Sequence record: OL631479.1
Source: Escherichia phage ECML-10
Length of the DNA: 64,000 nt
Reading direction: 5' to 3' (one strand)
The notes below the pieces were generated by a model. It was given only the letters and a program-made list of their open reading frames with translations, searched no databases and had not been told where the DNA came from. Within the stretch, counting starts at the first letter, position 1; every line of letters starts with the position of its first letter. The position numbers and the translations under genes were made by a program. This document shows positions 26,515 to 45,269 of the stretch, piece after piece.

Positions 26515-27321
26515 TTAGATAAAACGCTTGAACATAGAAGGTGATGAGATTGATGGAATCACACAAGGAAGTGCTACCTCCTCTTTCTCCAGGAAATTAA
26601 TCGCAGAAGCTACACAGTCGGCCCAGTCGTCTTTCCTGTTAAATGTTGATCTTTCCCCGTTGAATTTTTCAAGTTCAGTCAGAAATGCTTCCAGAGTATC
26701 AGGATGGAAACTGGATTTTACAATCCTAACCATTCCTTGTTGGGCAAGATTGGCAAAAGGTGAGAACCTTGTCAGTTTAGATTTGTTGGAAGGCATTGGG
26801 TCTTCTTCAACCCTAAACCCTTCGGCGAGCAAGGATCTGGAGGATGTTAAGAACTCACTCTTACCTGCCTGACCAGGGTCCACAGAGAATACGATTATAC
26901 AATCATCACCATCAAACTGCGCCTGTTTCCTGATGATCACATCTCGTTCACCAGCCTTTTTACAGAACTTACCTTCCAGACCTGTGGAATACCTCCCGTC
27001 ATCAACGTTCTCAGGACAATAATCACCGGACAGGTAATAAAAGCCGTCGCTATCCTTACTTACCTTAACACTGGCTGTAAAGTCAGGAAATTTATTACCG
27101 GAAGTTCTCTCGGTTCCTGCCTTATCCCATGCCCTGCAAGATACTGATCCAAGGGGTACTCTATCGGCATCACGAAGGAAAGATCTTTGAAAATAGTTTG
27201 CACCCTCAGGCTTTGCAAACCAGTTGCCATGAAGAAGCTGGGCTTTTTCAAGCTCGGGCAGACCTTCAAGAAAAGCAAGGTATTCTGGGTTGTCTCTTAA
27301 GCAGACAGGATTATCGAATCC
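26515..27321 (-). CDS. terL: Terminase large subunit, C-terminal nuclease part (putative exon 2)
   Basis: Frame open from 27321 to 26515 (269 codons, longer than the 141-aa track ORF); RAWDKAGT and DFTAS motifs typical of terminase nuclease domain. Confidence 0.65.
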   Translation of the reverse strand, partial: GFDNPVCLRDNPEYLAFLEGLPELEKAQLLHGNWFAKPEGANYFQRSFLRDADRVPLGSVSCRAWDKAGTERTSGNKFPDFTASVKVSKDSDGFYYLSGDYCPENVDDGRYSTGLEGKFCKKAGERDVIIRKQAQFDGDDCIIVFSVDPGQAGKSEFLTSSRSLLAEGFRVEEDPMPSNKSKLTRFSPFANLAQQGMVRIVKSSFHPDTLEAFLTELEKFNGERSTFNRKDDWADCVASAINFLEKEEVALPCVIPSISSPSMFKRFI

Positions 27322-28291
27322 TTATATTCAAAGGTGGTCGCAACACCACCTTCCGCACCTTTACGTGCTGCTGCATGTTACCATGCAGAGTAGACTATAT
27401 CACCACCCATTTCAGGGTGCTTCGCTTTTCGAGCGCCATAAGCTTGCGCCCTACTCCCTCTCGGGATAGTCGTTGAACTACATTACCAATCGTAATTGTT
27501 TGAAATATAGGTGTAAGTCTTACGGTCTTTTATTCCTTTAACAACACTAAAACTTACTCCCCACTTCTTAGCTATTTTATTTACACACAAGACCTTATCA
27601 CTAAGATCCTCGCAGATACCTATTATCTTGTGCTCACTTATCCGATTAGAGGTTGGCACTTTTCTAAAGTTAAACTCTTTAGAAATATCTGGGTATACTG
27701 AGCCATTCTTTATACCACTTACAAGTGGTTGATTGACACCAAACATTTCACAAATGTCTTTTACCCTTGCGCCTTGCTCTAACAGCCTACATATTTCAAG
27801 AGCAGTGGCATCATCCAGAGACCTGTATTTATTGACATAGTCCTTTTTAAGTCCCATTTCATGAGCGTGATGTGTGTTTTCCTCAGGCGTTGTCCACTCA
27901 AGGTTCCATGCGGCGTTATTCAACTTATTACCATCTAGGTGGTTTACTTGAGTTTTTACGCTGGGATTGTCATTATCAACAAAAGTCATAGCAATCACTC
28001 TGTGAACGAGCACTTGGAACTTTTTACCGTCCTCGCACAAAGTTACCATAGCATAGCCAGTCTTTTTCTGCACATTAGGATGGAGGAATTTATTAGAATA
28101 CAGACTGTAAATTCTGCCATCGTATGTAGCACAATAATGATTGTAGCCTAAAAAGCCTAAATTTTTCATTTCAAACATCTCCCTACTACAGGTTCGGAAG
28201 GGTAATTATAGCTGCTGATTGTCCGTTTAGCAATCGGATTTCCCAGCAATTAACGAAGTTATTCGACGTGCATTTCTGCACGAAGCCACTA
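27322..28291 (-). other. Intervening sequence in terL, putative group I intron carrying an HNH ORF
   Basis: ~970 bp between the two terminase halves; same-strand HNH ORF; 3' part contains a GATATAGTCT-like element. Boundaries approximate. Confidence 0.45.
27483..28178 (-). CDS. HNH homing endonuclease
   Basis: 231 aa; HNH motif VNHLDGNKLNNAAWNLEWTTPEEN; located inside interrupted terminase gene. Confidence 0.8.
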   Translation of the reverse strand: MFEMKNLGFLGYNHYCATYDGRIYSLYSNKFLHPNVQKKTGYAMVTLCEDGKKFQVLVHRVIAMTFVDNDNPSVKTQVNHLDGNKLNNAAWNLEWTTPEENTHHAHEMGLKKDYVNKYRSLDDATALEICRLLEQGARVKDICEMFGVNQPLVSGIKNGSVYPDISKEFNFRKVPTSNRISEHKIIGICEDLSDKVLCVNKIAKKWGVSFSVVKGIKDRKTYTYISNNYDW

Positions 28292-29041
28292 TCATTTAAT
28301 GGTTGCGCCTATGAACGAGAATGACAACGGTCTTGGCTTGATCTCTACACCCAGTCCGTTAACCGTGGTGTATTTCTCTATCAACTCTTCTTTAGAGTCT
28401 CCCCATATAAATTCACCGTCGCGTCGGATAAAATATCTTTTCTTACCGCATTTCTCCGGATCTGGATACCCTTCATCGTCCAACCACCATCTAACCAGTT
28501 TGGCAAGCATGTGTTCTGAATCGGGGTTACAGCTGATAACCATTCTTGATGGATACTTTGACTGAGATCGCAGACGAGACATCAGATAGTCTATCTGCTC
28601 CCATTCGAACTGCGTGCCCTCATCGAAGCAAACCATGGTGTACTCAAGCCCCTGATGGTTAAGCTTATCTTGTACATACTCCATGTGGCAGTATTTTACA
28701 ACAGCTCCCTTTTTGCTTCTATCCCACTTGCCAGTGCTCGGATCAAACCGTGGAAAAATGAACTTATGATCCTTCTCTCTGAACTTTGGCTTAATGTTTT
28801 CAGGCAGATCACTATAAATAGCTACTGCTTTAGGCCATAGTCCACCCTCACCTTCCAACTGTGGGGTTGTTCTTCGGAACATAACCACAGAGCTGTGGGG
28901 GTCATCAATAATTTTAAGTGGCATCAACTGCAAGAGGAACGACTTGCCAGACCCTGCGGCACCGCCGATTACCAAAATATCTGCATCGTTTTCTAGGATC
29001 ATCTTCTGCTTTTCAGAACACGGTCCGTAAATCTTAGACAT
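28292..29041 (-). CDS. terL: Terminase large subunit, N-terminal ATPase part (putative exon 1)
   Basis: Walker A GGAAGSGKS, Walker B-like VCFDEG; 249 aa. Confidence 0.75.
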   Translation of the reverse strand: MSKIYGPCSEKQKMILENDADILVIGGAAGSGKSFLLQLMPLKIIDDPHSSVVMFRRTTPQLEGEGGLWPKAVAIYSDLPENIKPKFREKDHKFIFPRFDPSTGKWDRSKKGAVVKYCHMEYVQDKLNHQGLEYTMVCFDEGTQFEWEQIDYLMSRLRSQSKYPSRMVISCNPDSEHMLAKLVRWWLDDEGYPDPEKCGKKRYFIRRDGEFIWGDSKEELIEKYTTVNGLGVEIKPRPLSFSFIGATIK

Positions 29042-29828: not shown

Positions 29829-30098
29829 TTATCGAGGCACTCGGTGGATGATTCTAACAGTAACTGCATTTTCATTCATCAAGTATGCATCTACATCTCT
29901 GTAAATATAAAACTTCTGCTCACTATCAACAACACAAGCTACCGCCCCTTCAGAGTTGTCTTCAAAAAAGACCACCACTGCATCGCAGCTGAGTTCATGA
30001 TATGACTCTCGAAGATTTACAGCCAGAGGATTGAAATCGTCACGAAAATCTACGGTATGGGTTGGATTTACACGCTCTACAATTTTAAGTGTATACAT
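29829..30098 (-). CDS. Hypothetical protein
   Basis: Track ORF 29829-30188 trimmed to ATG at 30098 (RBS AAAGGAAC) because upstream part overlaps tRNA-Pro. Confidence 0.3.
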   Translation of the reverse strand: MYTLKIVERVNPTHTVDFRDDFNPLAVNLRESYHELSCDAVVVFFEDNSEGAVACVVDSEQKFYIYRDVDAYLMNENAVTVRIIHRVPR

Positions 30099-30143: not shown

Positions 30144-30221
30144 GTGGTCTCCACGGAGTGATTCGAACACTCGACCTCCTGATCCCAAATCAGGCGCTCT
30201 ACCAAGCTGAGCTACGCGGAG
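30144..30221 (-). tRNA. tRNA-Pro (anticodon UGG)
   Basis: Hand-folded cloverleaf: 7-bp acceptor, T-loop TTCGAAT, anticodon loop UUUGGGA, encoded CCA. Confidence 0.75.
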
Positions 30222-30232
30222 TATTCATTATT

Positions 30233-30307
30233 TGGTGGCCCTGGGTGGAATTGAACCACCGTCTGGCGATTATGAGTCGCTTGCTTGAACCTTCCAGCTA
30301 CAGGGCC
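30233..30307 (-). tRNA. tRNA-Met (anticodon CAU; could be Ile-lysidine type)
   Basis: Acceptor GGCCCTG/CAGGGCC, T-loop TTCAATT, anticodon loop CUCAUAA, CCA encoded. Confidence 0.7.
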
Positions 30308-30308
30308 A

Positions 30309-30384
30309 TGGTGCTGATGGCAGGACTTGAACCTGCAACCTATTGATTACAAATCAATTGCACTACCAATTGTGCTACATCAGC
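30309..30384 (-). tRNA. tRNA-Thr (anticodon UGU)
   Basis: Acceptor GCTGATG/CATCAGC, D-stem GCAC/GTGC, anticodon loop UUUGUAA, T-loop TTCAAGT, CCA encoded. Confidence 0.7.
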
Positions 30385-30390
30385 AAAAAG

Positions 30391-30488
30391 GTGCTAGGTG
30401 ATGGAATCGAACCACCTATGTATTCAACGACTACCTCGTCTATTTTCAGGATTAAAAATCCTCGCCCTTGCCAAAGGGCTTACCTAGC
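30391..30488 (-). tRNA. Atypical tRNA-like gene (~98 nt), isotype unresolved
   Basis: Perfect 7-bp acceptor and 4-bp D-stem, T-loop TTCGATT; anticodon arm has only 4 bp with loop UUUUUAA (UUU) and a ~30-nt variable region. Confidence 0.4.
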
Positions 30489-30596
30489 TCAGTATGTTGA
30501 CCATGTTGCTAGTCGGCGATGACGACTGTAACATTTGATAATCCGGTTCTGCTTCCGGCTTTCGCTTAATTACAAGGTCAACAATATGGCAGAGGA

Positions 30597-30686
30597 TAAT
30601 GGAATCGAACCATCATCGAGTCATCCTCAACGGGACGGTTTTCAAGACCGCTTGAGCACCATTGCTCCCTACCCTCTTTTATAAAC
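30597..30686 (-). tRNA. tRNA-Ser (anticodon UGA)
   Basis: Type II tRNA with long variable arm; anticodon loop CUUGAAA; T-loop TTCGATT; CCA encoded. Confidence 0.65.
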
Positions 30687-30791
30687 AATACTGATAATGA
30701 CACTGATTTTCGAGCAGTTAGTGACTAGTATAAACGACGATAAATATCAATGCCATTATCTGTATGATTTATGCATTTAAAAATATAAATT

Positions 30792-30879
30792 TGGTGGTGA
30801 GTGATGGAGTCGAACCACCAGAATCGCAATGATAACAGATTTACAGTCTGCCCCGCTACCCCTACGGAATTAACTCACC
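30792..30879 (-). tRNA. tRNA-Tyr (anticodon GUA)
   Basis: Acceptor GGTGAGT/ACTCACC, anticodon loop CUGUAAA, long variable arm, T-loop TTCGACT, CCA encoded. Confidence 0.7.
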
Positions 30880-31009
30880 TAAATACTAATATTTAAATTC
30901 TTTTTAAAATAGCTAGTGTTCTCACCACTAACTATGAGGTATCGGTAAAGTGGTTACCGCCACTTGCCGAAGATTTACTCTGCTAAAGTAAGCTACATTA
31001 AAAAGAACT

Positions 31010-31084
31010 TGGCACCCCGTACTGGACTCGAACCAGTGTCAACGGCTTAGAAGGCCGCTGCTTTATCCACTAAGCTAACAGGGC
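31010..31084 (-). tRNA. tRNA-Arg (anticodon UCU)
   Basis: Acceptor with two G-U pairs, D-stem GCTT/AAGC, anticodon loop CUUCUAA, T-loop TTCGAGT, CCA encoded. Confidence 0.65.
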
Positions 31085-31180
31085 ACTGGGTGGCTTTCTT
31101 TTACACCTTAGCCGCCAGAAAAGGTGGGAGACCATGTTTACAATATTACACTGTTAAGCAAAGTTTGTCAAGAAAATATT

Positions 31181-31516
31181 TTAGCTATTGCTAACAGGCT
31201 GTATTTCTGTAGTAAATGGCATAAAAGGTGCTGGTTTTTCAGCCTCTTCCACTACCATCTCTTCCTCTTCACCAAACATCTCATCATATTCTTCCTGCAT
31301 TCGGTCTGCCTTATCAAGAACATACTCTGCAATGCTTTGACGAATATTTTGTTTGGTTTTCGGGTCCAACATCATCTCTCTTAAAACTTTGTGAGCTTCT
31401 GGAACCATCGCTATAAAAGATTCCTTCATATCAAGGATGTTCTTCTCTAGCTGAATGGCGTTGGACTCCTCTTTCAGAGGTCTGCCTCTACGGCGACGCT
31501 TTTTAGTTGTATCCGC
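31181..31516 (-). CDS. Hypothetical protein with basic AT-hook-like N-terminus
   Basis: Start chosen at MADTTKKRRRRGRPLK; acidic C-terminus. Confidence 0.3.
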   Translation of the reverse strand, partial: ADTTKKRRRRGRPLKEESNAIQLEKNILDMKESFIAMVPEAHKVLREMMLDPKTKQNIRQSIAEYVLDKADRMQEEYDEMFGEEEEMVVEEAEKPAPFMPFTTEIQPVSNS

Positions 31517-31865
31517 CATGTTTCCTCCATTATCACGTGATAGGTGGATTTTATCATAGCAAATACTGATTGTCAAGTTCGCCGCAGGGTGGTATTCCCT
31601 GCGACTTGTCCAGCGTCCTGGACCAGCAAGACCCAACAAGTGGGTTACCAGAGGCCTATTACCCGCGCTTCGGCTCGACCTTGTTACAGGTTGGCTGGGG
31701 TCACATCGTCATGTGCTGGCTGCCCCTACCATTTTAAGTGTGGTGCACTATCAAGCCCTCTAAGGGGAACTCAGTCTTCTCCGAACCCTGTTTCAAAGCA
31801 TCCGGAGATAAAGCCATCAAATTCATCTTTAAATTGGATATTCATCATGATACACGAAAACAACC

Positions 31866-44712: not shown

Positions 44713-45269
44713 GAAAGAAAGCTGTCAAAGCCCCCGTTCATAGCGGGTGGCTAAAAGATTCTAAGGACATAGCCAACTTTCGAAAAGAATTGTCAGAGGA
44801 GCAGGATGGTCTTGATCCGATCTTGTGCGAGCCACTTCGTAAGCCTTGTTTAGATCATGATCATCTGACTGGTCGTTGCAGGGGTGTTTTGTCTCAGTGC
44901 ACTAATACCTTTGAGGGGTATGTGCTTAAATACTGGATGAAATACTGTAACGAGTATACAGATTGCAGTTTATCAGAGGCGTTGCGCCGGATGGCTGACT
45001 ATCTGGAGAAAGACTACAGCGACTTCCCGCTCCACAAAAACTACAGAGATGATATGACAAAGTTCTTGAGGAGATGCTCTAAAGCTACGATTATTGCACG
45101 AGCAGAATCAGATCTCAATCTTGTCATTAATCCAGAGTGCACCAAGCATGAGGCTATTGAGTCCTACATGCAGGAGTTTATAAAGAAAACTGAGGAGAGA
45201 GATTTCTATGGGGATGAAAAAGGTATTCAATCCTTGCGACTCAGTCCTGATCAGGATGAAATACCGTAA
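44664..45269 (+). CDS. Endonuclease VII-like (T4 gp49-type) resolvase
   Basis: CLDHDHLTGRCRGVLSQCTN motif; start uncertain (TTG 44664 overlapping upstream gene, no early in-frame ATG). Confidence 0.65.
   Translation: MDRQGASGGVIAKRKIRKKAVKAPVHSGWLKDSKDIANFRKELSEEQDGLDPILCEPLRKPCLDHDHLTGRCRGVLSQCTNTFEGYVLKYWMKYCNEYTDCSLSEALRRMADYLEKDYSDFPLHKNYRDDMTKFLRRCSKATIIARAESDLNLVINPECTKHEAIESYMQEFIKKTEERDFYGDEKGIQSLRLSPDQDEIP

Follow-up and report, generated by a model that had tools for sequence, protein, structure and literature searches.

The tRNA cluster of Escherichia phage ECML-10: six canonical tRNAs, among them a probable tRNA-Ile2, and a conserved tRNA-shaped RNA of phages

The tRNA cluster of phage ECML-10

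A stretch of 64,000 nucleotides (nt) from Escherichia phage ECML-10 (OL631479.1), referred to here as the window and used for all coordinates, contains seven genes for transfer RNA (tRNA)-like molecules. In an ARAGORN scan of the whole window, all seven were found inside 30145–31084 and on the minus strand. An earlier note on this DNA had described seven co-oriented tRNA genes at this place; their number, their common orientation and every anticodon that it listed were borne out, and the strand can now be added. Far from most of them being rejected by prediction software, all seven are called by ARAGORN and six pass the gathering score of the Rfam tRNA model (RF00005; 35.5–79.5 bits against a threshold of 29), Ser being the one gene below it. 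In the order of the coding strand, the genes are as follows.

31010–31084, minus strand: tRNA-Arg(UCU), reading AGA and AGG; G73, CCA encoded (ARAGORN; Rfam tRNA 67.8 bits)
30792–30879, minus strand: tRNA-Tyr(GUA), class II; A73, CCA encoded (ARAGORN; Rfam tRNA 42.8 bits)
30587–30677, minus strand: tRNA-Ser(UGA), class II; G73, CCA encoded (ARAGORN)
30390–30488, minus strand: atypical tRNA-shaped RNA of 99 nt (ARAGORN "???(atcc)"; Rfam tRNA 35.5 bits; family model 103.6 bits)
30309–30384, minus strand: tRNA-Thr(UGU), reading ACA; A73, CCA encoded (ARAGORN; Rfam 79.5 bits)
30233–30307, minus strand: gene with anticodon CAU, assigned to the tRNA-Ile2 type; CCA encoded (ARAGORN; comparison with Escherichia coli)
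30145–30221, minus strand: tRNA-Pro(UGG), last gene of the cluster; C1-G72, A73, CCA encoded (ARAGORN; Rfam 66.4 bits)

The Arg, Tyr, Ser, Thr, CAU and Pro genes have the features of canonical elongator tRNAs, namely a 7-base-pair (bp) acceptor stem, a 7-nt anticodon loop with U33 and a purine at position 37, a T loop, and detection by tRNA software (ARAGORN calls all six); five of them score 42.8–79.5 bits with RF00005. CCA is encoded in six of the seven genes, while the atypical gene ends in A-CC-U. For tRNA-Tyr, the 5' end was placed at 30879 by the Rfam alignment, which gives an acceptor stem of GGUGAGU/ACUCACC, the ARAGORN end at 30875 being 4 nt short. The Ser gene is a regular class II cloverleaf despite its sub-threshold Rfam match, the match left after clan competition being to tRNA-Sec (39.4 bits against 47). 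Spacing within the cluster is uneven. Separations of 1–12 nt, as given in the earlier note, hold for the Pro-CAU (11 nt), CAU-Thr (1 nt) and Thr-atypical (5 nt) gaps, whereas the remaining gaps are of 98 nt (atypical-Ser), 110–114 nt, or about 112 nt (Ser-Tyr), and 130 nt (Tyr-Arg).

The cluster is 97–99.7% identical to that of more than 100 deposited Vequintavirus (rV5-like) genomes, each of which covers at least 80% of it, and the region is the tRNA cluster of a Vequintavirus, an rV5-like E. coli myovirus. It is not new, because it was already published in 2013 as six tRNAs: the rV5 genome paper reported Arg, Tyr, Thr, "Met" and Pro plus Ser, found with ARAGORN, argued for codon supply in the case of Arg and Pro, and termed the Met tRNA "seemingly unwarranted" (Kropinski et al., 2013, PMC3606486). 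The locus, the gene order and the six canonical tRNAs are the same in both descriptions; the rV5 paper differs in counting six tRNAs, in calling the CAU gene Met and in leaving the seventh RNA unmentioned. What is new here is the reassignment of the CAU gene to Ile2, the conserved non-canonical tRNA-shaped RNA family and two conserved RNAs in the spacers. The locus is probably a Vequintavirus tRNA operon in which six canonical tRNAs are accompanied by a seventh RNA that is no standard decoder and belongs to a phage-restricted family of tRNA-shaped RNAs.

As a separate observation on the deposited records, about 18 unannotated GenBank entries named "Campylobacter phage" (MG0656xx) are 96–100% identical to this cluster, which suggests mislabelled hosts or contaminating coliphages.

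The CAU gene as an Ile2-type tRNA

The Met identity that the earlier note had given to the CAU gene did not withstand comparison with E. coli. In alignments with K-12 genes, the CAU gene was found to be 76% identical to ileX and 82% identical to a prophage tRNA-Ile(CAU) gene, against 58% to metT/U and 51% to the initiator gene metV. Its best matches among 5,413 E. coli genomes are all annotated as tRNA-Ile, and the top match adjoins a prophage Q gene. In addition, the acceptor stem contains C4-G69 and C5-G68 and begins with GGCCC.. like that of ileX, whereas that of metT begins with GGCUA.., and the CAU gene and ileX share the same anticodon-arm core, GCGACUCAUAAUCGC. Work of Ikeuchi et al. 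from 2005 reportedly places the determinants of TilS in the CAU anticodon, C4-G69, C5-G68 and an ileX-type anticodon stem. The CAU gene shows the sequence features of a tRNA-Ile2.

An elongator tRNA-Met was rejected on the difference in identity (58% as against 76–82%). An initiator tRNA-fMet, which is marked by the mismatch C1xA72 and by a run of three G-C pairs at the base of the anticodon stem, was likewise rejected, the gene having a paired G1-C72, an anticodon stem of AGCGA/UCGCC and the lowest of the identities given above. BASEL records annotate the gene as Ile/ATA; furthermore, AUA is enriched in the phage and AUG is not. Judged from these features, the CAU gene would encode an Ile2-type, lysidine-dependent tRNA that reads AUA, its C34 being expected to be converted to lysidine by the host TilS. 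This reassignment removes the puzzle of the "unwarranted" Met tRNA in rV5-like phages and strengthens the codon-supply explanation of the cluster.

A conserved family of tRNA-shaped RNAs

The window copy of the seventh RNA has a 7-bp acceptor stem, a 6-bp D stem with a 4-nt loop, a canonical T arm, A73 followed by CC-U, and a 30-nt variable region with a 5-bp hairpin. Its anticodon hairpin can be drawn as AGGAU-UUUUA-AUCCU or with 4 bp and the loop UUUUUAA. The earlier note was right that one gene of the cluster is atypical, but the gene appears to be a member of a distinct conserved RNA family and not merely an odd tRNA. GenBank labels for it vary between Lys, OTHER, TERM, Pseudo and "???(atcc)", or the gene is left unannotated. 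Diverged homologues were found in Avunavirus, Seunavirus, Henunavirus, Mydovirus and one N4-like Salmonella phage. A covariance model built from 14 sequences gives family members 92–122 bits and ordinary tRNAs at most 34 bits, its 40 matches corresponding to 26 distinct sequences. The conserved 22-mer of the family has no match in 185,579 prokaryotic species genomes, on which ground a bacterial origin was rejected; it does occur on 18 metagenome contigs, which range from short fragments to phage-genome size (approximately 137–152 kilobases (kb)). A wider family was also considered through the D-arm word CCTTTGGCAAGGNCGAGG on 26 IMG/VR contigs and rejected, as these are chance matches that score at most 20 bits outside the known phages and contain no ARAGORN tRNA. 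By sequence comparison, the seventh RNA appears to be a phage-only family of five Vequintavirinae genera and one N4-like phage.

The fold of the family is carried by covariation. In a MAFFT alignment, 99% of the cells assigned to stems are paired, compared with 31–46% when the partners are slid, and both sides change in 11 of the 22 pairs, compared with 0–2 in the slid controls. The tertiary pair between the D loop and the T loop, G19:C56, is G:C in 10 sequences and U:A in four, with no mismatches, so that the seventh RNA shows this hallmark of the tRNA L-shape. RNAalifold independently gives the same cloverleaf, with 12 of 23 pairs covarying, and in each member tested the minimum free energy (MFE) structure and the centroid are both the cloverleaf (z = -4.5 for the window copy). 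Each of the four stems of the cloverleaf shows compensatory changes, and the variable hairpin persists although its sequence has changed. In the resulting family fold, the acceptor and T stems are of 7 and 5 bp, the D stem of 6 bp closes a 4-nt loop, and a hairpin of 5 bp takes the anticodon position. A8 and U14 are invariant because the D stem is of 6 bp with a 4-nt loop; its two extra pairs are themselves invariant, which leaves covariation silent on them, and they are predicted by RNAalifold and by single-sequence folds. The variable region of 30–40 nt consists of a hairpin of three sequence types between single-stranded GAAAA and AAUACAUA, flanks that are invariant in nearly all members. 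A canonical tRNA body has U8 and A14, a D stem of 3–4 bp and a variable region of 4–5 nt (class I) or up to about 21 nt (class II), and the seventh RNA departs from it in all three respects.

The anticodon region is far more variable than the body. Its loop is of 5–8 nt and reads UUUUA, UUAUA, CAUCCA, CCUCAA, CCUCCA, CAGCCA or (C/U)AUCAAA; UUUUA is the form found here, UUAUA that of Avunavirus, CAUCCA-like that of Seunavirus and Mydovirus, and (C/U)AUCAAA that of the Henunavirus type. Position 33 is A or C in most members, not U. The discriminator is A73 in Vequintavirus only, U73 in the Seunavirus, Mydovirus and Henunavirus types, which end in U73-CCA, and U or C in Avunavirus. In the window copy, a 4-bp stem with the loop UUUUUAA can be drawn, while the fifth pair U31-A37 (C-G in other genera) leaves 5 nt, and the MFE structure closes the loop further, to 3–5 nt.

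Among known RNAs, the E. coli tRNA-Sec has the anticodon loop CUUCAAA, one base off the Henunavirus-type CAUCAAA. The family resembles tRNA-Sec (RF01852) in its 6-bp D stem, 4-nt loop and long variable arm, and tRNA-Sec is the best Rfam match for members outside Vequintavirus. It differs in having a 7/5 and not an 8/5 arrangement of acceptor and T stems, a U or A and not a G discriminator, no U33 and no conserved anticodon; members of other genera score 23–39 bits against a gathering score of 47, and the window copy has UUU and its best match is tRNA. A tRNA-Sec identity of the seventh gene was rejected on the 8/5 arrangement, G73, the UCA anticodon and the Rfam gathering score. A transfer-messenger RNA (tmRNA) or YrlA was also rejected, as ARAGORN finds no tmRNA and the weak YrlA and tmRNA_permuted matches of Rfam lie over the Pro and Ile2 genes instead. 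A Leu identity (class II, A73) was set aside on account of U14, present in every family member, E. coli LeuRS needing A14.

Allo-tRNAs are said, in work by Mukai et al. from 2017, to occur in bacteria and their phages, where they may act as suppressors or regulatory RNAs. They share with the seventh RNA a tRNA shape, long variable arms and unexpected anticodons, but as described have 8/4 or 9/3 acceptor and T stems, unlike the 7/5 arrangement of this family (Mukai et al., 2017; Krahn et al., 2020, PMC7609411). No description of the seventh RNA or of the Arg-Tyr insert RNA treated below was found in the literature, of which the older work on stable RNAs of T4 and T5 lay largely outside the coverage.

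Several side observations concern the loci of the homologues. In SSE-121, Mydo and NINP13076, short coding sequences for hypothetical proteins are annotated over the RNA (loci L040 185–268, L046 253–454 and L041 337–456) and are probably false gene calls, and in SSE-121 an HNH endonuclease gene lies about 220 nt downstream of the tRNA-shaped RNA. In one metagenomic phage contig of 152 kb, the ARAGORN calls include a tRNA whose anticodon is CUA (locus L063 7862–7934), approximately 1.5 kb from the copy of the tRNA-shaped RNA; it is reported as tRNA-Pyl and is a possible amber suppressor, in a call that reaches the end of the examined locus.

Structured RNAs in the spacers

The wider gaps of the cluster contain three further elements.

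30896–31009, minus strand: Arg-Tyr insert RNA of about 115 nt, a four-way junction (homologues, covariation and fold)
30678–30791, minus strand: Ser-Tyr spacer, one long imperfect hairpin (fold of -26.4 kcal/mol, z = -4.7)
30489–30571, minus strand: 3' element of tRNA-Ser, two hairpins, 83 nt (BLAST to lambda and D6)

The insert RNA, which consists of a 12-bp closing stem and three hairpins, fills the gap between the Arg and Tyr genes. It is missing from most rV5-like phages: records of the rV5 type such as pangalan do not have the 115-nt insert that the window carries, and the Tyr-Arg gap of pangalan is 5 nt. Unannotated homologues were found in 177 phage records, comprising Phapecoctavirus, Justusliebigvirus, T5-like phages, Certrevirus and a Pseudomonas phage (loci L078 401–530, L079 401–516, L080 401–522, L082, L083, L084 and L086), and in the T5-like, Phapecoctavirus, Certrevirus and Pseudomonas phages the RNA exactly fills the space between tRNAs. 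Across six sequences, pairing extends to 98.6% of the stem cells, and both partners have changed in six pairs, compared with 0–1 in slid controls; the fold has z = -3.4. Of the eight IMG/VR matches to a 19-mer of the insert RNA, four were discarded as chance matches. The only match in a bacterial genome is in Scandinavium lactucae (NZ_JAWXRD010000031.1; locus L089, about 205–300), where hairpins A and B follow a TTGACA motif, the closing stem, hairpin C and a nearby tRNA being missing.

The tRNA-Ser gene and its 3' flank are 80% identical to the tRNA-Ser(UGA) region of the P1-like phage D6. The Ser 3' element accompanies Ser(UGA) in D6 (L077 391–566) and stands alone in lambda, at 44866–44952 (L076 501–587), in the late leader between orf-64 and S. 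Pairwise alignments with lambda and D6 give 83% identity over 88 nt and 80% over 179 nt, and one hairpin, GUCG/CGAC, becomes GGCG/CGCC in lambda, a compensatory change. A peptide encoded in this element was rejected: although the window and lambda both have short open reading frames (ORFs) there, these differ in sequence and are put out of frame with each other by an indel. Neither the insert RNA nor the Ser 3' element has a match among 4,227 Rfam models (E <= 10 for the window; E <= 1 for the homologous loci L078 and L079). The Ser-Tyr spacer is confined to Vequintavirus: the 113 records that contain it are rV5-like without exception, with identities of 94.8% or more. The comparisons point to the insert RNA and the Ser 3' element as conserved structured RNAs that are shared with unrelated phages. 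Such sharing between rV5-like, T5-like, phAPEC8-like, P1-like phages and lambda points to unannotated small RNAs and to an exchange of cassettes between tRNA clusters.

The tRNA cluster of T4 is compact and co-transcribed and contains Arg(UCU), Ile(CAU reading AUA), Pro, Ser and Thr. Small stable RNAs that are not tRNAs (species 1 and 2, rnaC/rnaD) lie between its tRNAs, and some of its genes do not encode CCA. By this description, the T4 cluster resembles the present one in its compactness, its small extra RNAs among the tRNAs and its CCA-less genes; it differs in that the extra RNAs of the window are defined by conservation and covariation alone.

Gene order and transcription

The cluster is flanked on the minus strand by the following features.

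31181–31519, minus strand: unknown gene directly preceding the cluster (ORF; PHROG scan)
31143–31171, minus strand: predicted sigma-70-type promoter, TTGACA-17-TAATAT (consensus scan, 10 of 12 matches)
29829–30098, minus strand: small unknown gene after the cluster (ORF), starting 46 nt beyond tRNA-Pro

The earlier note had placed the cluster downstream of the structural module, a description that is true in plus-strand coordinates alone. On the coding strand, the order is the unknown gene, the cluster, the small unknown gene, two Rz-like spanins, the terminase large subunit, the portal, the major head protein and the tail sheath (PHROG matches), and the cluster lies at the transcriptional head of this lysis-terminase-structural block. 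The predicted promoter lies about 50 nt upstream of tRNA-Arg and 10 nt past the stop codon of the preceding ORF. No credible terminator was found inside the cluster by a scan, in which the terminator-like matches were tRNA arms, nor was a terminator-like site found between tRNA-Pro and the ORF at 29829–30098. With one strong sigma-70-like promoter, no credible internal terminator and gaps of 1–11 nt, the polycistronic precursor proposed in the earlier note is supported as probable. The simplest reading of the sequence is that the cluster would be co-transcribed as one precursor, possibly reading on into the late genes; most likely, this single precursor would start at its own sigma-70-type promoter and be cut by host tRNA-processing enzymes. 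Upstream of the ORF that precedes the cluster, at 31548–31576 on the minus strand, there is a further sigma-70-like site, which is stronger (TTGACA-17-TAAAAT, 11 of 12 matches) and includes an extended -10 TG.

Codon usage

The codon-usage comparison that the earlier note had proposed was carried out between 70 long ORFs of the window (17,200 codons) and a 50-kb segment of K-12 (14,500–14,700 codons), and cognate codons ending in A were found to be enriched. Per thousand codons, the phage uses AGA 6.2 times, AGG 4.4 times, AUA 2.9 times and ACA 2.8 times as often as the host; AGA and AGG are the two most enriched codons, and GGA is also among the most enriched. Ranked by relative synonymous usage among 59 codons, AGA is 1st, ACA 3rd, AUA 4th, CCA 14th and UCA 16th, while UAC is 37th and AAA 39th. 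In a random-set test on the six canonical genes, the enrichment of cognate codons has p = 0.0015.

Codon supplementation, as advanced in the earlier note, is upheld by this test for Arg, Thr, Ile2, Pro and Ser, but not for Tyr or for the Lys-like RNA, whose codons UAC and AAA stand low in the ranking. Codon supply explains the first five tRNAs and does not explain Tyr or a Lys decoder. The five would supply decoders for AGA/AGG, AUA, ACA, CCA/CCU and UCA, codons that the phage uses two to six times as much as the host. The phage is only moderately AT-rich, at variance with the plain description of it as AT-rich: the genome has approximately 43% GC, and its GC content at third codon positions (GC3) is 0.42, against 0.54 in the host sample.

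Possible roles of the seventh RNA and of the cluster

At the level of the family, comparison of the homologues argues for an extra tRNA-shaped RNA and not for a substitute decoder. The conserved anticodon and U33 of a decoder family were not found. In Seunavirus and Mydovirus, the RNA occurs alongside 21–24 canonical tRNAs that include Gly(UCC), Lys(UUU) and Lys(CUU). ARAGORN calls no family member in the scanned loci of the other genera, and copies outside Vequintavirus fall below both Rfam thresholds, that of tRNA and that of tRNA-Sec. The targets of selection are the tRNA body and the presence of the hairpins rather than a triplet, and the role of the RNA would require its recognition as a tRNA by some protein. 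The job of the family may be recognition of its tRNA body by a tRNA-binding factor, and not codon reading; such a factor could be an enzyme of tRNA processing or CCA addition, a synthetase or one of the defence nucleases that target tRNAs. In the Vequintavirus lineage, with its loop UU-UUU-AA and A73, the RNA may additionally or instead be charged with lysine. A bolder and distinctly tentative proposal is that of an undescribed class of tRNA mimics with a non-decoding role, in which the acceptor, T arm, D arm and elbow are retained, the D arm is tRNA-Sec-like, the oversized variable arm is of three interchangeable types and the "anticodon" loop is free to change, with the insert and Ser 3' RNAs as further mobile cassettes. 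Such mimics might be decoys or inhibitors of defence nucleases, or acceptors in a non-ribosomal reaction. Apart from this proposal, the inconsistently labelled gene represents a selectively maintained, phage-only family of tRNA-shaped RNAs with a fold for which there is no curated model. Since phage tRNAs have recently been shown to neutralise PARIS, retron-Eco7 and P2-OLD, such a mimic, conserved but with a loop that varies between host genera, is a cheap-to-test candidate for a new counter-defence or regulatory RNA.

Several points weigh against the overall reading of a tRNA operon whose seventh RNA is not a standard decoder. Functional claims throughout are drawn from sequence, and covariation proves a conserved fold, not a non-decoding role. 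The loop of the window copy can also be given the canonical length of 7 nt, as U32 U33 UUU A37 A38, with six of the seven positions identical to the loop of E. coli tRNA-Lys (PMC11464382). The copy also passes the Rfam tRNA threshold, Vequintavirus has no other Lys tRNA, and the window copy may be a working, if odd, tRNA-Lys. As to the rest of the cluster, the evidence for its co-transcription is a consensus promoter match, the Ser-Tyr spacer holds another, weak promoter-like site (ATGGCA-18-TATACT), and half of the 50-kb K-12 sample consists of ribosomal-protein genes.

A possible but doubtful alternative develops the Lys identity: the Vequintavirus gene would be a tRNA-Lys(UUU) on an unusual scaffold, charged by lysyl-tRNA synthetase (LysRS), provided with CCA by the host and serving as a nuclease-resistant stand-in for the host tRNA-Lys. 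The loop UUUUUAA is close to the host CUUUUAA, and UUU together with A73, found only in Vequintavirus, represents the main LysRS determinants; the gene scores 35.5 bits with the Rfam tRNA model, above threshold, and is annotated tRNA-Lys/AAA in BASEL. Since AAA is not enriched (39th of 59), a Lys tRNA would be more sensible as counter-defence than as codon supply, and host tRNA-Lys(UUU) is indeed cut by AriB and RorSlfn5 (PMC11464382, PMC13056530). AriB of PARIS cuts it at 40/41, and T5 escapes through a variant tRNA-Lys (PMC11464382); the foreign anticodon stem AGGA/UCCU, in place of the host GUUGA/UCAAU, would make the phage RNA a poor nuclease substrate, and a shortened anticodon stem contributes to the resistance of a phage tRNA-Thr to P2-OLD (PMC12445682). 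Like the seventh RNA, the T5 tRNA-Lys is a phage RNA with a UUU anticodon and an anticodon stem that differs from that of the cleaved host tRNA-Lys; it is, however, a canonical class I tRNA with few stem substitutions whose rescue was shown experimentally, whereas the seventh RNA has a non-canonical body and is known from sequence (Burman et al., 2024, PMC11464382). The structure speaks against Lys: the predicted fold closes the loop to 3–5 nt, drawing the loop with 7 nt reduces the stem to 4 bp with G.G at its flank, the variable region is of 30 nt, the D stem is of 6 bp and CCA is not encoded. So do the relatives, as the sister genus Avunavirus has UAU with a U or C discriminator, which fits no identity set, and most members occur beside canonical Lys tRNAs and have loops in which no normal anticodon can be presented; a Lys-like loop rich in U and A could arise by drift. 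Much less likely is a recoding tRNA, whether an opal suppressor or tRNA-Sec relative (UCA, Henunavirus type) or a four-base decoder (8-nt loops, Seunavirus and Mydovirus). In its favour, Hena1 is annotated with a tRNA-sup(tca) and some rV5-like records with a tRNA-TERM, the D arm and long variable arm are like those of tRNA-Sec, with sub-threshold matches of up to 39 bits, and ARAGORN proposes a four-base anticodon. Yet the arrangement is 7/5 and not 8/5, the discriminator is U or A and not G, position 33 is A or C, the triplet varies (UCA, UCC, UUU, UAU), and the ARAGORN "atcc" fold competes with the covarying hairpin. The four-base anticodon was rejected on this last account, as its weak AUUUU/AAAAU stem would destroy the covarying AGGAU/AUCCU and the aligned bases form the stem in other genera; a UUA loop (ochre suppressor, "tRNA-TERM") was rejected because the required stem register has four mismatches in five. 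No obvious stop-codon recoding was seen in the ORFs examined, in which no search aimed at recoding was made. That the gene is a decaying, functionless tRNA pseudogene is effectively excluded by covariation. Several GenBank records do label it tRNA-Pseudo or tRNA-OTHER or omit it, the full CCA is missing and phage V18 has lost the 5' half; nevertheless, the RNA is conserved over five genera while its flanks cannot be aligned, compensatory changes affect four stems and one tertiary pair, the variable hairpin is kept, and the gene has been kept in a Vequintavirus set that is reduced to just seven RNAs, compared with 21–24 in other genera.

For the cluster as a whole, it is improbable that it consists, as first read, of seven ordinary decoders including Met, kept only for the codon usage of an AT-rich phage. 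This would agree with the seven ARAGORN calls, with the significant enrichment of cognate codons for the canonical set and with the same argument made for Arg and Pro in rV5 (PMC3606486). It is opposed by the grouping of the CAU gene with Ile2 and not Met, by the lack of enrichment of UAC and AAA, by the non-canonical structure of the seventh RNA, whose homologues are not decoders, and by a GC content of about 43%, moderately under that of the host. A shaping of the cluster mainly by host defences that target tRNAs, with spare Thr(UGU), Tyr(GUA), Lys(UUU)-like and Ile(CAU) molecules, is conceivable but on balance unlikely. P2-OLD targets tRNA-Thr(UGU), PtuAB of retron-Eco7 tRNA-Tyr(GUA) and AriB tRNA-Lys(UUU), and all three are countered by phage tRNAs with the same anticodon (PMC12445682); the Schlafen nuclease RorSlfn5 cuts Lys(UUU) and Ile/Met(CAU) (PMC13056530). 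The host tRNAs cut by these four systems match the Thr, Tyr, Lys-like and Ile(CAU) members, and Tyr and the Lys-like RNA are the two that codon usage leaves unexplained. Against defence as the main force, codon supply suffices for Arg(UCU), Thr(UGU) and Ile2, whose codons are the most enriched, and no rV5-like tRNA is named in PMC11464382, PMC12445682 or PMC13056530. The two explanations are not mutually exclusive, and tRNA-targeting defences are plausible as a second selective force beside codon supply.

Plasticity of the cluster and its surroundings

Phage V18 (L007 1451–1547) retains only the Arg, Thr and CAU genes: Ser and Pro are gone, and through a deletion a 5' portion resembling Tyr runs directly into the last 47 nt of the seventh RNA. 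In Escherichia phage 241Ecol014PP (L003 1692–2033), an HNH endonuclease insertion of 353 nt interrupts the anticodon arm of tRNA-Pro, at window position 30189/30197. The insertion leaves this phage with no intact Pro gene and is not long enough for a group I intron that contains an ORF. These two phages and the cassette-like spacers show frequent gain and loss by recombination and homing. The T4 cluster likewise holds a homing endonuclease gene, SegB (PMC2330249).

Further along the coding strand, the terminase large subunit appears to be split within 26515–29041 (minus strand). Its N-terminal part at 28292–29041 corresponds to profile positions 147–373 and its C-terminal part at 26515–26940 to positions 489–621. 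No Rfam group I intron was detected in this region at the gathering threshold. An HNH endonuclease ORF (27483–28178) lies between the two parts, and the split terminase is a candidate for an intron or a homing-endonuclease insertion.

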